This document shows, one piece after another, positions 213 to 14,849 of a DNA stretch of 64,000 bases. This stretch comes from an uncultured Methanosarcinaceae archaeon. Lineage in GTDB: Archaea > Halobacteriota > Methanosarcinia > Methanosarcinales > Methanosarcinaceae. The stretch lies in NCBI GenBank assembly GCA_963847185.1, contig CAWJYV010000008.1:512001-576000 (forward strand), written 5' to 3'. Both the position numbers and the translations under genes were made by a program. Numbering within the stretch: position 1 is the stretch's first letter; every line of letters begins with the position of its first letter. The notes under the pieces are model-generated. The model was not told the origin of the DNA, did no database searches, and was given only the letters and a program-made list of their open reading frames with translations.

Positions 213-777
213 CTAATTTTTAAATATTTTAATGAAAATCGTCTTTATGAAATATGCTCTCTGTCTTGATCCCATAAGCTGTAAACATGTTTTCAATCCA
301 TATTGTAGCTATTTTGGAAAAATTAACGCCAAAATCATGGGTTATTATCAGCTTATAATGGCCTTCGCAATCTGTGTAATCGATAGTATCGATCCAGCTA
401 GTTATCTTGAGATTGACGATCAGCCCATCTATAACTTCTTTTAGACTACATTCCTCAAGAGACTTCTGAAAGTATAACTCTATTGTATATTCTATGGTTT
501 TATTCCGGATAAAAAGCTCACTTAGCAGCTCAATATCAGCAGTTTCTATTAGCAATTTAAATGTAGTTTTTTCGATAATAACTAATGATTTTGCCTTTTT
601 AAGGCGCATCCAATATTTTTCTTCTAGGGATAATGCAGGTCCCTTTTTTGAGCTGTTTTCCAGACATTCCAGTGCAAATTCTAAGGTTTTTTGCTGTGTT
701 TCATATTTTTCGGCTTGTTTTTTTAATAATTCCCAATGTTTCTGCGAGATTGTAGTGGAAATTCGGTGTGTTTTCAA
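213..777 (-). CDS. Hypothetical protein, putative transcriptional regulator (RHH-like N-terminus), divergent from the PatA-like gene; probable frameshift near the 3' end
   Basis: 182-aa ORF 229..777; N-terminus RISTTISQKHWELLKK...LEFALECL looks ribbon-helix-helix-like; a shifted frame at ~240 continues as TIFIKIFKN* to 213. Confidence 0.55.
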
Positions 778-1050: not shown

Positions 1051-3239
1051 ATGAGACTTGCAGATCAAAGTGAAATATTGGATGTAATCATGAAATCAAC
1101 AGAGATTATGGAGAACATTGAAGGAGATGCAAATATTTGCATTGCAGTCCTTGACGGTCCGGTTGACCTAAATCATCCTTGTTTCAACAAAACCAAGATA
1201 ACAAAAATAGAAACTTTAGTTTCAGACGTTACTGAGAGAGGACCAAGTGCATACCACGGAACTCATGTTGCTAGCTTAATCTTTGGCCAGCGTAGCAGTT
1301 CCATTCATGGTATTGCTCCTGGCTGTCGTGGACTTGTAATTCCTGTTTTTGCAGATGGGCCTGATGATTCGATTACCCCCTGTTCTCAGATTGATCTCGC
1401 TCACGCCATCACACAAGCCGTTGAACACGGAGCCCATGTAATAAACATCAGTGGTGGGGAACTGGTTTCCTCTAGTGAACCTCATCCTCTACTTGACAAG
1501 GCTGTTCGTCTTTGCGCCGAAAACGGTGTTTTAATTGTTGCAGCTGTGGGAAATGACGGATGCCAGTGCCTCCATGTGCCAGCCGCCATTTCTTCGACCC
1601 TTGCAGTAGGGGCAATGGATGCCCGGGGAATACCACTTGACTTTAGTAATTGGGGGAAGCCGTATCAGATTAATGGTATTCTTGCACTTGGTGAAAAATT
1701 ATTGGGAGCTGTGCCTGGTGGGGATGTCACCATCAGAAGCGGCACCAGCTTTGCCACTCCTATTGTTTCTGGTATTGTTGCTTTGCTGTTGAGCATCCAG
1801 AGACAAAGGGGAAACAAACCTGATCCCCACGCTGTGAGGGATGCCATTCTCCAGAGCGCTTACCCTTGTATCCCTTCCGAAAGTTTAGATTGTTCTCGTT
1901 ATCTAAGAGGCCGTCTCAAAGTTGGAGGGGCATATGATCTTGTCACAAGAAAACAACAAGCTGTGACTTACAGTACTAATTCAGTACAACAAATTCAAGA
2001 GAGTGTGAACGTAAGACTGGTGGAATCTTCCAAAAAACTGCCTGTTCTTGGCGTGCAGAATGCGGAATTCACAACACTTAATCCGGAGATAGCAGCGCCC
2101 TCTACTCTGAGTTCCACTTTGGACGCAATGAAAGCTCTGGAAAATCCTGATTCTATTGAGTCAAAATCAATAGATATAGAGAAGAACGAACAAACGAAAA
2201 ACCAGACACCGGAGGATAATATGACCGAAAATATAGAAGGAACATGTGGTTGTCCAGAAGGAAAGAAGATTGAAGACAAAATTCACGAGCCAACAACTGA
2301 TAAAAGTAAGCTCCAGATCCATGCATCTGATGTACAGGCGACAGAATTTATGATTCCAAACCAAGAGTTTGCTACATCATCTGTCATGCCCTCGGAGGTC
2401 CATCCAGCTGCATGTTCTGCGAATGGACAACAATCCCTCGTATACGCCCTTGGTACACTAGGTTACGATTTTGGGAGCGAAGCACGGCGAGATGCTTTTG
2501 TCCAGAGCATGAAGGATGATAGGCCGAACCCAGACGACCCTGTGCAATTGCTGACCCATTTAGAAAATAATCCTGAGTACGCGGAGTCACTCATATGGAC
2601 CCTCAATATTGAGGAAACCCCTATTTATGCAATCCGCCCTATGGGCAGTTTTGCCTCGAAGACTTACGAGCAGCTACGCGAATTTCTTGATGCACAGCAG
2701 GCAAAAAAAGTAGAAAAAGTTTCGATTCCAGGGGTAATTGTAGGAAAAGTAAAACTCCTTTCAGGCCAGGTGGTACCGGTCATTATCCCAGAACTGCGGG
2801 GAATGTACTGCTGGCGTGAAGAGGCTGTGGTAAAAACTGCAGTGCGTGCAGTGTTAGGTTCGGAGTTCAAAAGTGCCGATGATGATACACTGAAAGCAGT
2901 ACATGCAGGTGCTCGCAACTTCTTAATGCGGGTGTATTACGAGTTCATGAACCTAGGCCGGACTCCACAGGAGCGTGCCATGAACTTTGCCGGAACAAAT
3001 GCATTCCAAGTTGTGGACGTCTTTGAGCAGGCGGTTAAAGAGAGACTGACGCTAGATAGTATTATACGGAAAAAAGCGCGATCTGTAGGCCAGATTCGGA
3101 ATGTTGGGATGTGAAGCTGAAGTTTTTCGATCCGGCCAATATACAACAGGTCGCCAGAAAGGTGTATCGCTTTACTATCGATGTAAGTGACGTGGTGCCC
3201 GTTTCAGTTGGAGAGATACGGTCTTGGTCGGTTTACTAA
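1051..3239 (+). CDS. Cyanobactin maturation protease, PatA/PatG family (PatA-type S8 subtilase plus C-terminal PatA/PatG domain), 1-nt frameshift at ~3064-3075
   Basis: Triad motifs IAVLDGPVD, HGTHVAS, SGTSFATP; CSQIDLAHAITQA and GNDGCQCLHVPAA typical of PatA; C-domain LVYALGTLGYDFGSEARRDAF; the -1 frame 3066..3239 reads TEKSAICRPDSECWDVKLKFFDP...VYRFTIDVSDVVPVSVGEIRSWSVY*, the characteristic PatA/PatG C-terminus. Confidence 0.9.
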
Positions 3240-3258
3240 GCCGGATAAATCTAATTAC

Positions 3259-3293
3259 GTGCCACCAAAGGGGTTCATCGCCTTTGGTGGCAC
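3259..3293 (+). other. Perfect 13-bp stem-loop between protease and precursor genes
   Basis: GTGCCACCAAAGG (3259-3271) / CCTTTGGTGGCAC (3281-3293). Confidence 0.75.
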
Positions 3294-3430
3294 TCACGAA
3301 TTTACAACTATTGTCACTATGATGAGGATGGTGATAATAAGCAGAAACAGTTTGTTTCAAACCGTCACCTGTGTGGTGACAGAACAGCTCCCCTTACGGG
3401 AAAGAACAAAAAGAGATAGGAGGAATTATT

Positions 3431-3640
3431 ATGAAATTAAAAACAAGCAAAACCTGTTGTGAGAAAGTCAGTACAGCGAAAATAGAGTCTGGAATCTGTC
3501 AATCTGGTCTTTGTGAAATGGGTTGCAGTCTAATTCCAAATGCCACTGCAAAGAATATCTGCCTAGCAGCATGTCCAGTAGCAGGCAGTTTAGCAAGCAA
3601 GATTCCGGTGGTAGGCGGGATATTGGGTGGCCTGTTATAA
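3431..3640 (+). CDS. Cys-rich putative RiPP precursor peptide 1 (69 aa)
   Basis: RBS AGGAGG; near-identical to 3653..3865 from AKIESGICQS onward; CX3C-X11-CX3C core; hydrophobic tail IPVVGGILGGLL. Confidence 0.8.
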   Translation: MKLKTSKTCCEKVSTAKIESGICQSGLCEMGCSLIPNATAKNICLAACPVAGSLASKIPVVGGILGGLL

Positions 3641-3652
3641 GGAGGAAATGTT

Positions 3653-3865
3653 ATGAGAGTACCAAAACAAGCAAAACCTGTCATGAGAAATGCCCGTATG
3701 GCAAAGATTGAGTCTGGAATCTGTCAATCTGGTCTTTGCGAAACGGGTTGTAATCTAATTCCAAATGCCACTGCAAAGAATATCTGCCTAGCGGCATGTC
3801 CAGTGGCAGGCGGTTTAACAGGTCTGATTCCGGGAGTAGGCGGGATAATAAGTCGCCTGTTTTAA
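3653..3865 (+). CDS. Cys-rich putative RiPP precursor peptide 2 (70 aa)
   Basis: RBS AGGAGGAAATGTT-ATG; leader MRVPKQAKPVMRN resembling cyanobactin PatE/PatB P-Q-x-x-P-V-x-R leaders; GICQS; CX3C-X11-CX3C. Confidence 0.85.
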   Translation: MRVPKQAKPVMRNARMAKIESGICQSGLCETGCNLIPNATAKNICLAACPVAGGLTGLIPGVGGIISRLF

Positions 3866-3874
3866 TAGCGAGAT

Positions 3875-4099
3875 AGATAGTGCAACAAGAATCGAAGCCA
3901 AAATAGGTCAAATTGAACATTTCCAAGTGAGTGTGGCCTAATTAACAATACCATAAGAAATGCCACATAGCATTTAATGTCGAATGCTTGTGTAGGCAGT
4001 CTTTTTGGATGTAATGCGTTGGGACTTATTGCCAGAACCTTCAAAAAACAACGCGATTGGATAGCTGCAATCAGTATGGTTGCAAGCTATCCCTTATAA
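3875..4099 (+). pseudogene. Heavily decayed precursor-peptide copy 3
   Basis: Shares the 12-mer AAGAATCGAAGC with copy 4; reads RIEAKIGQ...CGLINN...NAT* with frameshift and stop; leader missing. Confidence 0.45.
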
Positions 4100-4141
4100 T
4101 TTCTAGTAGGTATTAAAAACCAGAAATAAGAAGGAAATGTT

Positions 4142-4305
4142 ATGATAGTATCAATGCAGGCAAAACCTGTTATGAGAATGTCAGAAGCAAGAATCGAAGC
4201 AGGAATCAGTCAGTTTAGCATTGCGAAATAGGTTTAACTTAATAAAATGCTGCAGGAAAGGCTGTTTGCCTGGCCGCATACTGCGGTTTTGGAAAGGTTC
4301 TCTGA
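4142..4305 (+). pseudogene. Frameshifted precursor-peptide copy 4
   Basis: RBS AGAAGGAAATGTT-ATG; MIVSMQAKPVMRMSEARIEAGISQFS, then shifted frames give CEIG.NLI..AAGKAVCLAAYCGFGKVL*. Confidence 0.7.
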
Positions 4306-4545
4306 TATTGCTGCAGTACAGACAATTTGTGGATTAATATCTATGTAATCTGGGGCATTTGTTCGTGTTTTTTTAACACACATCTCCCCCACTGATTATT
4401 TGGCAAAAATAATGAAATTGACTTCTTAGAGTTGATGTATAGTTTCGATCGTTCCGGTTGGAAGCTATCTAAATACTCATTTTTTGAGTAGCCCAAAATT
4501 GGGTGCCTCAGAGTAGCCAGAATAAGAACCAAGGAGGAAATTGTT

Positions 4546-4701
4546 ATGAGAACACCGATGCAGGCAAAACCTGTTGTGAGAAATGTCAGTAAGGCAAAAA
4601 TCAAGGTAGGAGTCTGCCAGTCTTCTGATTGCCACGAGAGTTGCAGCACAAAGACAGGGTTTCAGAAGAATTTATGCTTGGAGATGTGCGACTCCGCTTA
4701 A
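4546..4701 (+). CDS. Cys-rich putative RiPP precursor peptide 5 (51 aa; below ORF-track cutoff)
   Basis: RBS AGGAGGAAATTGTT-ATG; MRTPMQAKPVVRNVSKAKIKVGVCQSSDCHESCSTKTGFQKNLCLEMCDSA*; CX3C-X10-CX3C. Confidence 0.85.
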   Translation: MRTPMQAKPVVRNVSKAKIKVGVCQSSDCHESCSTKTGFQKNLCLEMCDSA

Positions 4702-4903
4702 AGATTTTTATGCTGATCAGTTAAAAGATTAACAGAATATGACTACACTTACGGCTTATTCTACCGCAAGCAAAGTAAGACATATTTCATGCTTTTAGTA
4801 TAATGTCCGCTGCTAAATTATTTACAAATACGGTGAAATTTAATGTTAGACGATTGCTAAATAATATAAATATGGTAATAATATATTTTCAAGAGGGGAA
4901 GTT

Positions 4904-5733
4904 ATGGGAAAAGGTATGGCGTTAACAATCGGACTGAATGCCGTCGACCGAAGCATTATGCGGGATGGTCGGGAGAATTGGCTGCATGCGAATTCGATGC
5001 AGTCGATTATGCAGAGATTGCGAAGTCTAGAAATTTTGAGGTTAAGACCCTCCTTACCAAAGAAGCTACCAGGACAAATGTAATCGATGAAATCTCCAAG
5101 GCAGCAAACTCGTCGAAGGCCGGAGATATGTTCATGTTGAGTTATTCTGGTCATGGCGGCTGGTTGACGGATTTGAATGACGACGAAGAGGATGGAATGG
5201 ACGAGACCATGTGTTTGTATGATGGTCATTTAATCGATGACGAATTAAACGCTCTATTTGCAAAGTTCGGTGAAGGAGTTCGAGTTCTATATTCGGACAG
5301 CTGTCACAGTGACGGTTAAAAAATGGTGTTTTTAGAAACGATTGAAAATAAGCCGGAAAACCGAGGAAAAAAATCCTCAAGCTCGTACCGTTACATGCCT
5401 AATGATATTTGATCCGGTTTATATGGCAAACCAGGCTTTTTATAACAAGATATTACAAGACGAAAGCTTATGAATGCCGGGGACGATATCAAGGCTACTT
5501 TGTTGCACATATCGGGATGCCAAGATAACCAGTTTTCGAGAGATGGGATGAGGAACGGCCTTTTTACTTCCAAACTATTATACGTGTGGAAACACGAAGG
5601 TTGCGATAAAAATTACAGACAGTTTTACGATGGAATCTGTAAACGAATGCCATCTACGCAAACTCCAAATTTTTATATCACAGGTAAGATCGATCCAAAA
5701 TTCGAGAAGCAACAAGTCTTTAAGTTTGATTAG
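4904..5733 (+). pseudogene. Caspase-family (C14, metacaspase-like) peptidase, multiply frameshifted
   Basis: MGKGMALTIGLNAVD / KHYAGWSGELAACEFDA; catalytic YSGHGG and DSCHS; C-terminal ISGCQDNQFSRDGMRNGLFT in ORF 5470..5733. Confidence 0.85.
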
Positions 5734-12289: not shown

Positions 12290-12676
12290 TAAACGAATTA
12301 AAAAGAAAATATTGCTCTCGCTTACTTTTATCGCTGGTGTGTTCTTTACAGGGCTATATGGCGTTAAGTCTTCGGAAGGTTAGTTATCTTACGGTATCTG
12401 AACTCATGTCCGATCCTCAGGCCCGTCTCGGGCAAAATGTAAATGTAGTGGGAGTTGTAGAATACGAAAGCCTCGAGGTGACTCCCGATATGAAGGTTTT
12501 TGAACTAACGGACGAAAATAATGGGAATTTCAAAGTTCGTGCAGAGTATAACAGGCAGCCTTCCCTCCAACCTTGTAGAAGGAAAAAAGGTGAGTATCGG
12601 CGGAACTATGGTTTCTGGATCTACGTTTGAGGCAAATAAAATTATTACTCGATGTCCATCCAAGTATACGGAGTAG
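12290..12676 (+). pseudogene. ccmE: Heme chaperone CcmE (archaeal CxxxY type), disrupted
   Basis: TM anchor KKKILLSLTFIAGVFF, YLTVSEL..GQNVNVVGVV, and after a frameshift LPSNLVEGKKVSIGG...FEANKIITRCPSKYTE*; no clear start codon, TAG plus two frameshifts. Confidence 0.8.
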
Positions 12677-12681
12677 TATTG

Positions 12682-13539
12682 ATGAATATTGAAGAGTGGG
12701 AAGAGTACAGATATGTTGAATCCGGGATAAGTTCATTCATTGCTCAAATGAGTGACTCCGCCCTTAAAGATATGGTCAAACATGTCTGTAATACCGGAGG
12801 AAAACGAATCAGGCCGGTCATCCTCCTTCTTGCCAGTGATATCTGCTCAGGCTCGTATTCTCAGAGCCTTGGTGCAGCTCTTGCTGTTGAAATGATGCAT
12901 TCGGCCTCCCTTGTCCATGACGATCTGGTGGATCAGGGGCTTCTAAGAAGAAATCTACCTTCTGCACCTAAAAAGTTTGGTCCTTCAAGGGCACTTCTCT
13001 GTGGGGATTACCTTATTGCAAAATCCATCGAATTCATTTCTCCCTATGGGGAGAAGGTAATTAGGGATTTTGGAATTGCCGGGATGAATCTGGCTGAAGG
13101 AGAAGTACTTGACTTGAGACTGGATGAGGACAGTTTTGAAGAAAGCAATTATTTTGATTGCATCTATAAGAAAACAGCTTCTTTGTTTGCGATCAGTGCA
13201 TCTATCGGAGCTTATACCGGAGGAGCAAATGAGGAGTTAGCGGCTCGTTTCAACTTCTTTGGAACTTCTCTTGGAACTGCATATCAGGTTGTTGACGATA
13301 TCCTTGAATTTCTAGATGTAGTTGAAGGTAAAGAGTCAAAGTGCATATCTGAAACTCTGCCGCACGTTTACATGAAGAACATGTCCAGAGAAGAAGCAGT
13401 ACAGAGATCCATAGATGCAGTAAAGTTGCATGTTAATGCCGCAAAACAAACCCTTGTGACTTTTAAAGAATGTCCCTCGAGGGATAAACTTTTCCAGATT
13501 ACTGATTATATGACTGTTGATATGCTAGGAAATATCTAA
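12682..13539 (+). CDS. Polyprenyl diphosphate synthase (probably geranylfarnesyl-PP synthase)
   Basis: GGKRIRP, FARM HDDLVD, RR, KTASLF, SARM QVVDDILE; Ala at position -5 of the FARM. Confidence 0.85.
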   Translation: MNIEEWEEYRYVESGISSFIAQMSDSALKDMVKHVCNTGGKRIRPVILLLASDICSGSYSQSLGAALAVEMMHSASLVHDDLVDQGLLRRNLPSAPKKFGPSRALLCGDYLIAKSIEFISPYGEKVIRDFGIAGMNLAEGEVLDLRLDEDSFEESNYFDCIYKKTASLFAISASIGAYTGGANEELAARFNFFGTSLGTAYQVVDDILEFLDVVEGKESKCISETLPHVYMKNMSREEAVQRSIDAVKLHVNAAKQTLVTFKECPSRDKLFQITDYMTVDMLGNI

Positions 13540-13670
13540 TTCACTCAGCTCTTCCTGAATAATGAATTGGTATTTTGCTCAATCTATTATATATATTCAT
13601 AATATCTCTTAGTTTTTATTTAACTTCTCAATTTATTCAACTTTTGCCACTAAATTTATCAGGTGTATTC

Positions 13671-14849
13671 ATGCGAGTATATGATAGTCCGGTTCTTAAA
13701 GTAAATGCCAGTACAGAAAACGAAAAAATGGTGCTAGATGCTGAGGGTCCCCTTTCCCAGCTTGCAAAACCTTTCCTGAAGCGTATAAATAGTATTTTTG
13801 CGGAAGAAAAACCTATTTCAATGGACGAAGATGAGATTATTTTCTCTACGTGGATCCCGCCTATTCCTGGACCTGTCTTCAGCAGGGTAATAAGTGCTGA
13901 GATCTCAGCTATCAGGAAGAAAAGAGTGCCTGATCAATTCTCAATAGGAATTACTGCCCGCTGTCCCAACCGCTGTATTCATTGTGGAGCAGCTGATATC
14001 AAGCCGGAAAAAGAACTGACTCTTGACGAAATCAGCGATGCTGTGGACCAGAGCCTGGATCTTGGAGCCTATCTTGTTTCCTTTGACGGTGGGGAAACTA
14101 TGCTTCGAAATGACCTTGTTGAGATGGTTGCCAGAGTGGATAAATCAAGGGCAATTGCAACCTGTTTCACTTCGGGTTTCAAGCTTTCTGAGGAGAGGGC
14201 AAAAGAGCTTAAGGCTGCAGGTCTCTATGCTGCAAGAATCAGTATTGACAGTCCTTTTGAAGTTGAACATGACCGTGTTAGGGGACGAGATGGCGCATAC
14301 AAGGATGCAGTCGCTGGAATAAGGAATGCTCGTAGCGCAGGAATCCTTACTGACATGTTTGTGGTAGTTTCTCCTCACAACATCGATAATCTTGAAGAAT
14401 TCTACACTCTCGCAGCTGATCTCAATATGCATGAACTTTCTATTTATGAAATCATTGCAGTTGGCCGCTGGCTTGATCATGAGGATGAAGTAATCAGCGA
14501 AAAAGATGTATCAAGGCTTGAGAAGTTCCAGAAAGCCATGAATAGTAAACCTGAAGGACCCAGAGTTACCGCTTTCCCATACTTCATGGGGCCTTCCCTT
14601 TTCGGTTGCTTTGCGGGCAGACGCTGGATGCACGTTGCTTCAGACGGGGAAGTCATGCCCTGTGCCTACACTCCATTATCCTTTGGAAATATCTGTGATG
14701 AATCTCTGGAGACTATCTGGAAGCGCATGGGTAAGCATAATGCCTTCAAAAAAGACACTCCCTATTGTATGATGCGTAACCCTGATTTCCGGAAGGAGTA
14801 CATCCATACGATCCCTCAGGGCGCAAAAATTCCTTATAGGCTTAAGTAA
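13671..14849 (+). CDS. Radical SAM/SPASM-domain protein
   Basis: CPNRCIHC motif, DGGE, C-terminal GCFAG...GEVMPC...FGNI...C. Confidence 0.9.
   Translation: MRVYDSPVLKVNASTENEKMVLDAEGPLSQLAKPFLKRINSIFAEEKPISMDEDEIIFSTWIPPIPGPVFSRVISAEISAIRKKRVPDQFSIGITARCPNRCIHCGAADIKPEKELTLDEISDAVDQSLDLGAYLVSFDGGETMLRNDLVEMVARVDKSRAIATCFTSGFKLSEERAKELKAAGLYAARISIDSPFEVEHDRVRGRDGAYKDAVAGIRNARSAGILTDMFVVVSPHNIDNLEEFYTLAADLNMHELSIYEIIAVGRWLDHEDEVISEKDVSRLEKFQKAMNSKPEGPRVTAFPYFMGPSLFGCFAGRRWMHVASDGEVMPCAYTPLSFGNICDESLETIWKRMGKHNAFKKDTPYCMMRNPDFRKEYIHTIPQGAKIPYRLK

Follow-up and report, generated by a model that had tools for sequence, protein, structure and literature searches.

A PatA-type protease gene and an array of Cys-rich precursor genes in Methanosarcina: a probable minimal cyanobactin-like maturation system

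The closest described relatives of the system considered here are the cyanobactin pathways, for which the available text of PMC10885120 gives G(L/V)E(A/P)S as the consensus site of PatA and a sequence of the AYDG type as the C-terminal recognition sequence of PatG. In the available part of PMC4663559, cyanobactin cores are 3-20 amino acids (aa) long and PatB appears as a conserved protein that is not essential and has no known function. As an archaeal case, we studied a stretch of 64,000 nucleotides (hereafter the window) from an uncultured Methanosarcinaceae archaeon (GenBank assembly GCA_963847185.1, contig CAWJYV010000008.1, positions 512,001 to 576,000 of the forward strand), the genome of which is that of a Methanosarcina, and in particular a family of small genes at window positions 3431-4701 together with the protease gene that precedes it. 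Our preferred interpretation, which we consider probable, is that of a minimal, two-part cyanobactin-like maturation system made of a PatA-type protease and an array of Cys-rich precursors that would be cleaved after a Ser residue. An initial annotation of 3431-4701 had proposed a precursor family with a cyanobactin-like leader and a predicted PatA site, and this interpretation is supported by comparative evidence; the existence and conservation of the family, the type of the protease, the synteny of the two and their joint decay are shown. The components of the locus are the following:

1051..3114, + strand: PatA-type subtilisin (S8) protease with a C-terminal cyanobactin domain of unknown function (DUF; PatG_D + PatG_C), main reading frame, 687 aa
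3066..3239, + strand: last ~55 residues of the protease (end of PatG_C), in the -1 frame; shift at or beside the A6 run 3070-3075
3431..3640, + strand: precursor copy 1, 69 aa; twin CX3C core and Gly-rich hydrophobic tail intact, N-terminus of the leader scrambled
3653..3865, + strand: intact precursor copy 2 of 70 aa; leader in residues 1-26, with GICQS at its end
3879..3911, + strand: copy 3, a remnant (SATRIEAKIGQ, the second half of the leader) without start codon and without core, seen from repeat family D7 and three-frame translation
4142..4305, + strand: copy 4, a pseudogene; leader intact (29-aa open reading frame (ORF) 4142-4231), core shifted to another frame and interrupted by two stops, running to ~4305
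4546..4701, + strand: precursor copy 5, 51 aa, intact; leader ending GVCQS, 25-aa acidic core, twin CX3C

The protease gene, which the initial annotation had not included, matches the model TIGR03895 (PatA/PatG family cyanobactin maturation protease) with 603.8 bits for a cut-off of 421.05 (602 bits in the genome search), and a second piece of 95.4 bits, covering profile positions 551-605, lies in another frame. Pfam recognises the S8 (7.7e-31), PatG_D (7.8e-20) and PatG_C (7.3e-15) domains. Comparison with PDB entries gave 324-326 bits for PagA (4h6w), 310-314 bits for PatA and 160-170 bits for the PatG macrocyclase, so that the PagA/PatA scores are about twice the PatG score, as is expected of the PatA subtype; the protein aligns end to end with PagA and PatA and the Asp, His and Ser motifs are present. 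Judged by these comparisons, the gene directly 5' of the array is a PatA-type N-terminal cyanobactin protease. No second gene of the genome exceeds the TIGR03895 cut-off; the remaining S8 matches reach at most 54 bits, and no PatG was found.

The small genes downstream form one family of five copies, all on the + strand, of which copies 2 and 5 are intact, copy 1 is impaired and copies 3 and 4 are dead. As had been read in the initial annotation, copies 2, 4 and 5 begin M-x-x-[PS]-x-Q-A-K-P-V-x-R, and the leader end A[KR]I[EK]xG[IV][CS]Q[SF] is seen in all four ORFs, about 14 residues after the position of the N-terminal motif; the product lengths predicted from it, 44 aa (GLCE...LL/LF) and 25 aa (SDCHESC...CDSA), are also correct. 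Copy 3, however, is a mere leader fragment, copy 4 a pseudogene, and copy 1 lacks the N-terminal motif through two compensating indels (net -3 nucleotides) that put nine codons out of frame in a leader that is the same as that of its siblings at the DNA level. A GGAGGA or GAAGGA box stands 6-8 nucleotides 5' of the ATG in each of the four ORFs. The central part of the motif, written [LIVT]P.[QL][ASTV].P[VI].R, occurs twice (copies 2 and 5) in the 8.08 million six-frame residues of the genome, and its N-terminal form three times (copies 2, 4 and 5) and nowhere else in the same residues. A tblastn search of the genome with four copies gave significant matches confined to window positions 3431-4698, and thus no further copy.

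The core of copy 2 is 44 aa long, with four Cys (CX3C-X11-CX3C) and a hydrophobic tail; its homologs reach 90% and 86% identity, and the ratio of nonsynonymous to synonymous substitution rates (dN/dS) against the ortholog at locus L022 is 0.44. Copy 1 has orthologs (P0003 and L022:7597-7809) with a canonical leader and a near-identical core, and its core gives a dN/dS of 0.26 against the L022 ortholog. The shifted frame of copy 4 resembles cores of locus L007 (...GKAVCLAAC.G..KVL), and the core type of copy 5 has relatives in L007, L011 and P0012. A search of the ESM Atlas with copy 2 gave a best score of 0.84, below a meaningful level. Copies 1 and 2 are a conserved adjacent pair (window 3431-3865) that is kept in L022 (7372-7809); they hardly differ in their twin CX3C heads, and the Gly-rich hydrophobic tail is individual to each. 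A resemblance of this pair to a two-peptide arrangement is speculative.

Homolog searches returned 8 proteins at E <= 10 among 9 candidates, 11 proteins at E <= 0.001 among 1.84 billion representatives and 25 proteins at E <= 0.01 among 116 candidates, and all the precursor relatives found are unnamed or 'hypothetical'. Our alignment comprises 41 precursors of archaeal, bacterial and metagenomic origin, and the statistics that follow refer to them. M1, R12 and the last Ser of the leader are invariant (41/41), P4, Q6, P9 and V10 of the N-terminal motif are at least 90% conserved, and the leader is 26-29 aa long; the leader is thus conserved in homologs, so that one of the conditions under which the initial annotation would have been refuted does not hold. 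Cores are 22-53 aa long and follow at least five unrelated Cys patterns, with four Cys in 21 sequences, six in 15 and eight in 5, always an even number. The contrast between a conserved leader and variable cores, which had been taken as the hallmark of peptides that are made by the ribosome and modified after translation (RiPPs), is therefore borne out, but the label 'RiPP' may overstate the case as a modifying enzyme is absent. In six orthologous pairs dN/dS lies between 0.14 and 0.70, and one orthologous pair has an identical core and a different leader. At L008 (6001-6240, and likewise in P0009), two tandem twin CX3C units stand behind a single leader, without an internal recognition sequence.

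At the predicted cut site, P1 is Ser in 41/41, P2 is Q in 19 and P in 14 (33/41 together), P3 takes 14 different residues and is not acidic, P4 is I, V, L or M in 40/41 and P5 is Gly in 26/41. This keeps the register of G(L/V)E(A/P)S, which the initial annotation had assigned to G[IV]CQS, with P2 mostly Q. As P3 varies over 14 residues, the Cys of GICQS is incidental, and this part of the proposed signature is not conserved.

Using a pattern scan over one genome per species, we found 48 matching stretches, six of which encode a relative: four in Methanosarcinales, one in a Nitrosomonadales metagenome-assembled genome (MAG) and one in a Nitrospinia MAG. Among the relatives found are Methanosarcina sp. 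T3 and uncultured Methanosarcinales. At all six loci, a PatA-type gene lies directly 5' of 2-9 precursor genes, L009 being truncated by its contig. Protease and downstream precursors occur together in 9/9 of the other loci examined that have a full-length protease gene (L006, L007, L008, L010, L011, L022, L023, L024 and L029, the last on a Gloeocapsa plasmid), and the same pairing is found at L009 and, with a variant leader, on an Acaryochloris plasmid (L033). Apart from protease and precursors, neither L008 nor L010 has a gene in common with the window. Within the family of the host, the protease is present in 9 of 177 genomes (the window genome included), in one genus only (8 of 58 others), and seven of these are over the cut-off; a sample of 400 further genomes of the phylum did not yield it. 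Genome G152 retains a fragmented protease and one truncated leader, and in G153 there is only a C-terminal remnant of the protease and no precursor. Together with the syntenic loci, these two genomes indicate that protease and precursors appear and decay together. That the small genes are chance ORFs or a non-coding repeat, as their size and the absence of a family annotation might have suggested, is refuted for practical purposes by conservation across phyla, dN/dS values below 1, Shine-Dalgarno boxes and the fixed synteny with the protease.

The two plasmid loci, pGLO7428.01 of Gloeocapsa sp. PCC 7428 (L029) and pREB2 of Acaryochloris marina (L033), each carry a lone PatA-family protease, directly 3' of which we observed a small Cys-rich ORF (L029 10924-11169; L033 13963-14151). 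The PLSDB gene table, which is incomplete, shows no gene at these positions, and the Gloeocapsa ORF is on record solely as a hypothetical protein. These stand-alone loci share with the window a lone PatA/PatG-family protease and, directly behind it, a small Cys-rich ORF whose leader ends ...KPS or ...QPS; they differ in having one precursor instead of an array, in their core types and, for Acaryochloris, in a divergent leader motif.

The initial annotation had also likened the leaders to those of PatE and to PatB. In a scan of the 41 precursors with 18,950 NCBIfam models (E <= 1), TIGR03678 (microcyclamide/patellamide RiPP leader) was matched by 11 precursors, with precursor residues 3-15 aligned to profile positions 7-19, NF042906 by seven and the PatB model by two; six unrelated families were matched by one or two precursors each. 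The Gloeocapsa peptide has a weak match to TIGR04446, below the cut-off. The likeness to PatE-type models is thus recurrent, but the matches are short and far below the cut-offs, and this weak resemblance of leader sequences would count solely together with the synteny.

The likeness to PatB held better, for the single sequence compared. PatB from the canonical cluster of Gloeothece PCC 7822 (130 bits with TIGR04220) begins MRLPKLAPPVKR and fits the motif pattern that within the genome is otherwise unique to the window copies; aligned by hhalign with the profile of the precursor family, it gave a probability of 74% and an E value of 2.7e-5 over residues 1-14 of both. A tblastn search of plasmids with this PatB found only itself. 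Against TIGR04220 (61 positions), the precursors align with positions 1-13 only, with at most 11.6 bits for a cut-off of 55 and 2/41 at E <= 1, and are not members of that family. The precursors and PatB/AcyB/McaB (TIGR04220) hence share the same motif in the same position, over the first 12-14 residues, and have no likeness past residue 14; PatB is single-copy and conserved, whereas the precursors are hypervariable. The match at the N-terminus would also fit another role of the small proteins, as accessory or regulatory peptides of a PatB-like kind that act as decoys, inhibitors or chaperones and are left uncleaved at the Ser. We regard this as very improbable, given that 2-9 divergent copies at a locus, hypervariable in their Cys-rich ends, form the pattern of a product and not of a cofactor, that the Ser and the hydrophobic residue three before it (P4) keep a fixed distance from the motif, and that the likeness to PatB ends after residue 14.

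Taken as a whole, the locus shares with the cyanobactin pathway the family of the protease and its order of S8 and DUF domains, a leader motif that resembles PatE-type models weakly but repeatedly, a predicted cut site in a register like G(L/V)E(A/P)S, and the presence in one cluster of several precursor genes, the cores of which are hypervariable. It differs in that the PatG macrocyclase is absent from the window genome, in that the cores are 22-53 aa long and Cys-rich instead of the 3-20 aa of cyanobactins (available part of PMC4663559), and in that the host is an archaeon. No C-terminal PatG recognition sequence of the AYDG type was found in the 35-41 aligned precursors, the C-termini of which are mutually unrelated. 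A genome-wide search for PatB (TIGR04220) finds nothing at E <= 10, and Pfam detects no heterocyclase, prenyltransferase, PatB or PatC among the neighbours, the PatC and PatD/F models not having been searched genome-wide. As PatG and the C-terminal signal are lacking and the scores with the precursor models stay below their cut-offs, this is not a canonical cyanobactin system.

Since the system brings along no tailoring enzyme, be it a macrocyclase, a heterocyclase, a prenyltransferase or one of another kind, its products probably stay linear and carry no other modification. An AlphaFold2 (AF2) model of copy 2 (33 sequences) has a mean predicted local distance difference test score (pLDDT) of 62, with helices at residues 28-33 and 39-48, block means of 74-78 in the Cys region and a disordered tail. 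From the even Cys counts and the predicted hairpin, we infer that the Cys would pair within the peptide and that the twin CX3C type would form a helix-loop-helix hairpin. Plant alpha-hairpinins are twin CX3C helical-hairpin peptides, which the CX3C-Xn-CX3C core and the AF2 helix-loop-helix recall; they have no sequence relation to the window cores and differ in biosynthesis, host and processing.

The protease might instead merely remove the leader, the chemistry being provided by enzymes encoded elsewhere, for example a thioether maturase of the radical SAM/SPASM type, or by binding of metal to the Cys. The strictly anaerobic host would suit this explanation, and even Cys counts fit paired cross-links or Cys4 metal sites equally. 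The window does contain, at 12652-14849, a geranylfarnesyl diphosphate synthase gene (573 bits, cut-off 600) followed by a gene for a radical SAM/SPASM protein (13575-14849) that fits no curated family, its best NCBIfam score being 125 bits for a cut-off of 500. However, this second gene is 9 kb off, behind unrelated genes and adjoining the synthase gene; we set it aside as a maturase as it is distant, not syntenic elsewhere and without an assignable family. No maturase is common to the archaeal, Nitrospinia, Gloeocapsa and Acaryochloris loci, and the system moves between phyla as protease and precursors alone, so that we consider separate chemistry of this kind unlikely.

Under the two-part interpretation that we prefer, a cytoplasmic PatA-type S8 protease would bind the leader through the N-terminal motif M-[KR]-[LVI]-P-x-Q-A-K-P-V-x-R and would cut after the invariant Ser of G-[IVLM]-x-[QP]-S. 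Peptides of 22-53 aa would be released, in the window genome 44 aa from copies 1 and 2 and 25 aa from copy 5, the Cys of which would then pair within the peptide, giving the helix-loop-helix hairpin in the twin CX3C type. As to the role of these peptides, we infer no more than that competition or signalling is the most likely.

Several observations weigh against this proposal. The window protease does not have an intact single frame through the C-terminal DUF, and with this frameshift and the damage to copies 1, 3 and 4 the system may be dead in the window genome. The best precursor-model scores are about 15 bits, for cut-offs of 35-75 (TIGR03678, TIGR04446 and NF042906); the window's own four copies match no cyanobactin precursor family at E <= 1, and genome-wide searches with TIGR03678 and TIGR04220 miss them at E <= 10. 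The comparison with PatB is that of one PatB sequence and the TIGR04220 profile, and the AF2 model of copy 2 is of moderate quality only. Disulfides are doubtful in a strict anaerobe such as the host, and metal binding by the Cys, or their cross-linking by an enzyme encoded elsewhere, would be alternatives. An evident route of export is also lacking.

The damage raises the question of whether the locus is, in this genome, a decaying and non-functional relic of a real family, a possibility that we rate as serious, somewhat below even chances. The frameshift at the A6 run 3070-3075 leaves the last 55 profile positions of the protease in another frame, the leader of copy 1 is scrambled, copy 3 is a remnant and copy 4 has a frameshift and stops; the flanking ARH, DUF123 and ACT-MBL genes and the 182-aa ORF upstream are intact and colinear with their orthologs, which argues against random assembly error; and relatives exist at all stages of decay (G152, G153, and L011 with a different frameshift). 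On the other hand, a change of one base in a homopolymer is the commonest assembly error, copies 2 and 5 are intact with good ribosome-binding sites, and the frame is kept through the catalytic domain and most of the DUF, so that a -1 slip on the A run would restore the protein. In eight full-length relatives, the protease is read through in one frame and ends ...CWDVKL...SW.VY.

The L011 protease is also frameshifted (2520-2580), within about 10 codons of the event in the window (3066-3114). Both shifts lie just before a conserved C-R-P-D-S-[DE]-C-W-D-V, that of the window being -1 at the A6 run and that of L011 +1 at a non-homopolymer; this proximity could be a coincidence, a hotspot or an assembly error. 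Programmed frameshifting as a conserved mechanism is unlikely, as the eight relatives are in one frame and the L011 shift is opposite in direction and not at a homopolymer.

A bolder reading, which we hold to be doubtful, is that the motif M-[KR]-L-P-x-Q-x-x-P-V-x-R of the precursors, of PatE-type leaders and of PatB is a docking signal for PatA/PatG-type proteins, with the DUF as the most plausible receptor or else an exosite of the protease domain, and that the locus is the first cyanobactin-type system working in Archaea. A two-gene system has no other possible partner for the motif, so that the protease itself, by its catalytic domain or its DUF, would be the receptor. The available text of PMC4259220 reports that PatG-DUF did not bind PatE' by nuclear magnetic resonance (NMR) and that the function of the DUF is unknown; this disfavours the DUF as receptor, with the limit that the finding concerns PatG-DUF and not PatA-DUF. 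If the docking reading were true, the locus would be a minimal model for the function of the cyanobactin DUF and of PatB, which would then be a decoy made of a leader alone, or a second substrate.

The protease and its array are accompanied by the following elements:

3240..3430, + strand: spacer that separates the protease from the first precursor, conserved and probably structured, including a 13-bp hairpin at 3259-3293
229..777, - strand: divergent 182-aa ORF without family
4978-5319 and 5470-5733: caspase-like (Peptidase_C14) gene, split in two ORFs, between the array and an ADP-ribosylglycohydrolase gene

Eight Methanosarcinales loci can be aligned over the spacer, with a mean column identity of 83%, and RNAalifold predicts several hairpins with 44 pairs, seven of which show compensatory changes, four of these in the first hairpin. 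Rfam has no family for it, a scan of 3000-4900 giving one chance-level miRNA match (E 0.31). The spacer could be a terminator or attenuator, or an element of mRNA stability. The 182-aa ORF has no Pfam or NCBIfam match; by tblastn it is found beside the protease in five full-length Methanosarcina loci, L006, L007, L022, L023 and L024 (47-78% identity over ~175 aa), and as short fragments at the contig edge of L011; L008, L009 and L010 lack it. It could be a mere neighbour of the system or a part of it, for instance as a partner or regulator specific to the lineage. The Peptidase_C14 gene has no counterpart at this position in related loci (tblastn) and was probably inserted and broken. The window also carries A/V-type ATPase genes.

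To place the archaeal proteases, we built a FastTree phylogeny of 79 rows rooted on a PatG, which comprised 68 of the 120 matches listed, seven locus proteins, the window protein and three plasmid-locus proteins; matches with 38-50% BLAST query coverage, locus duplicates and a few further full-length matches were left out, and the sampling is biased toward the query. The Methanosarcinales proteases are found together in a single clade of 38 rows (support 100), nested in a clade of 45 rows (support 99) that contains a Nitrospinia protein and unnamed metagenome proteins. The stand-alone protease of Gloeocapsa belongs to a separate cyanobacterial clade of 31 rows. This tree suggests a single acquisition by Methanosarcina, from bacteria.

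In the literature searched, we found no description of a PatA-type protease or of cyanobactin-like precursors in Methanosarcina, nor of a stand-alone PatA with Cys-rich precursors, the cyanobacterial plasmid loci included, and subscription papers and supplements may hold one in either case. The PatA-only variant with Cys-rich cores is apparently new for Archaea and undescribed. It would extend cyanobactin-type machinery to the Archaea and define a stripped-down architecture of protease and precursors that is also present, unannotated, in cyanobacteria and other bacteria. All the precursor relatives found are unnamed or 'hypothetical', and genome mining that relies on PatA together with PatG or on known precursor models would therefore miss them. 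As a system with a single enzyme, it would offer a clean route to the roles of the leader motif and of the cyanobactin DUF, and it may be a source of natural Cys-rich peptide scaffolds from methanogens.

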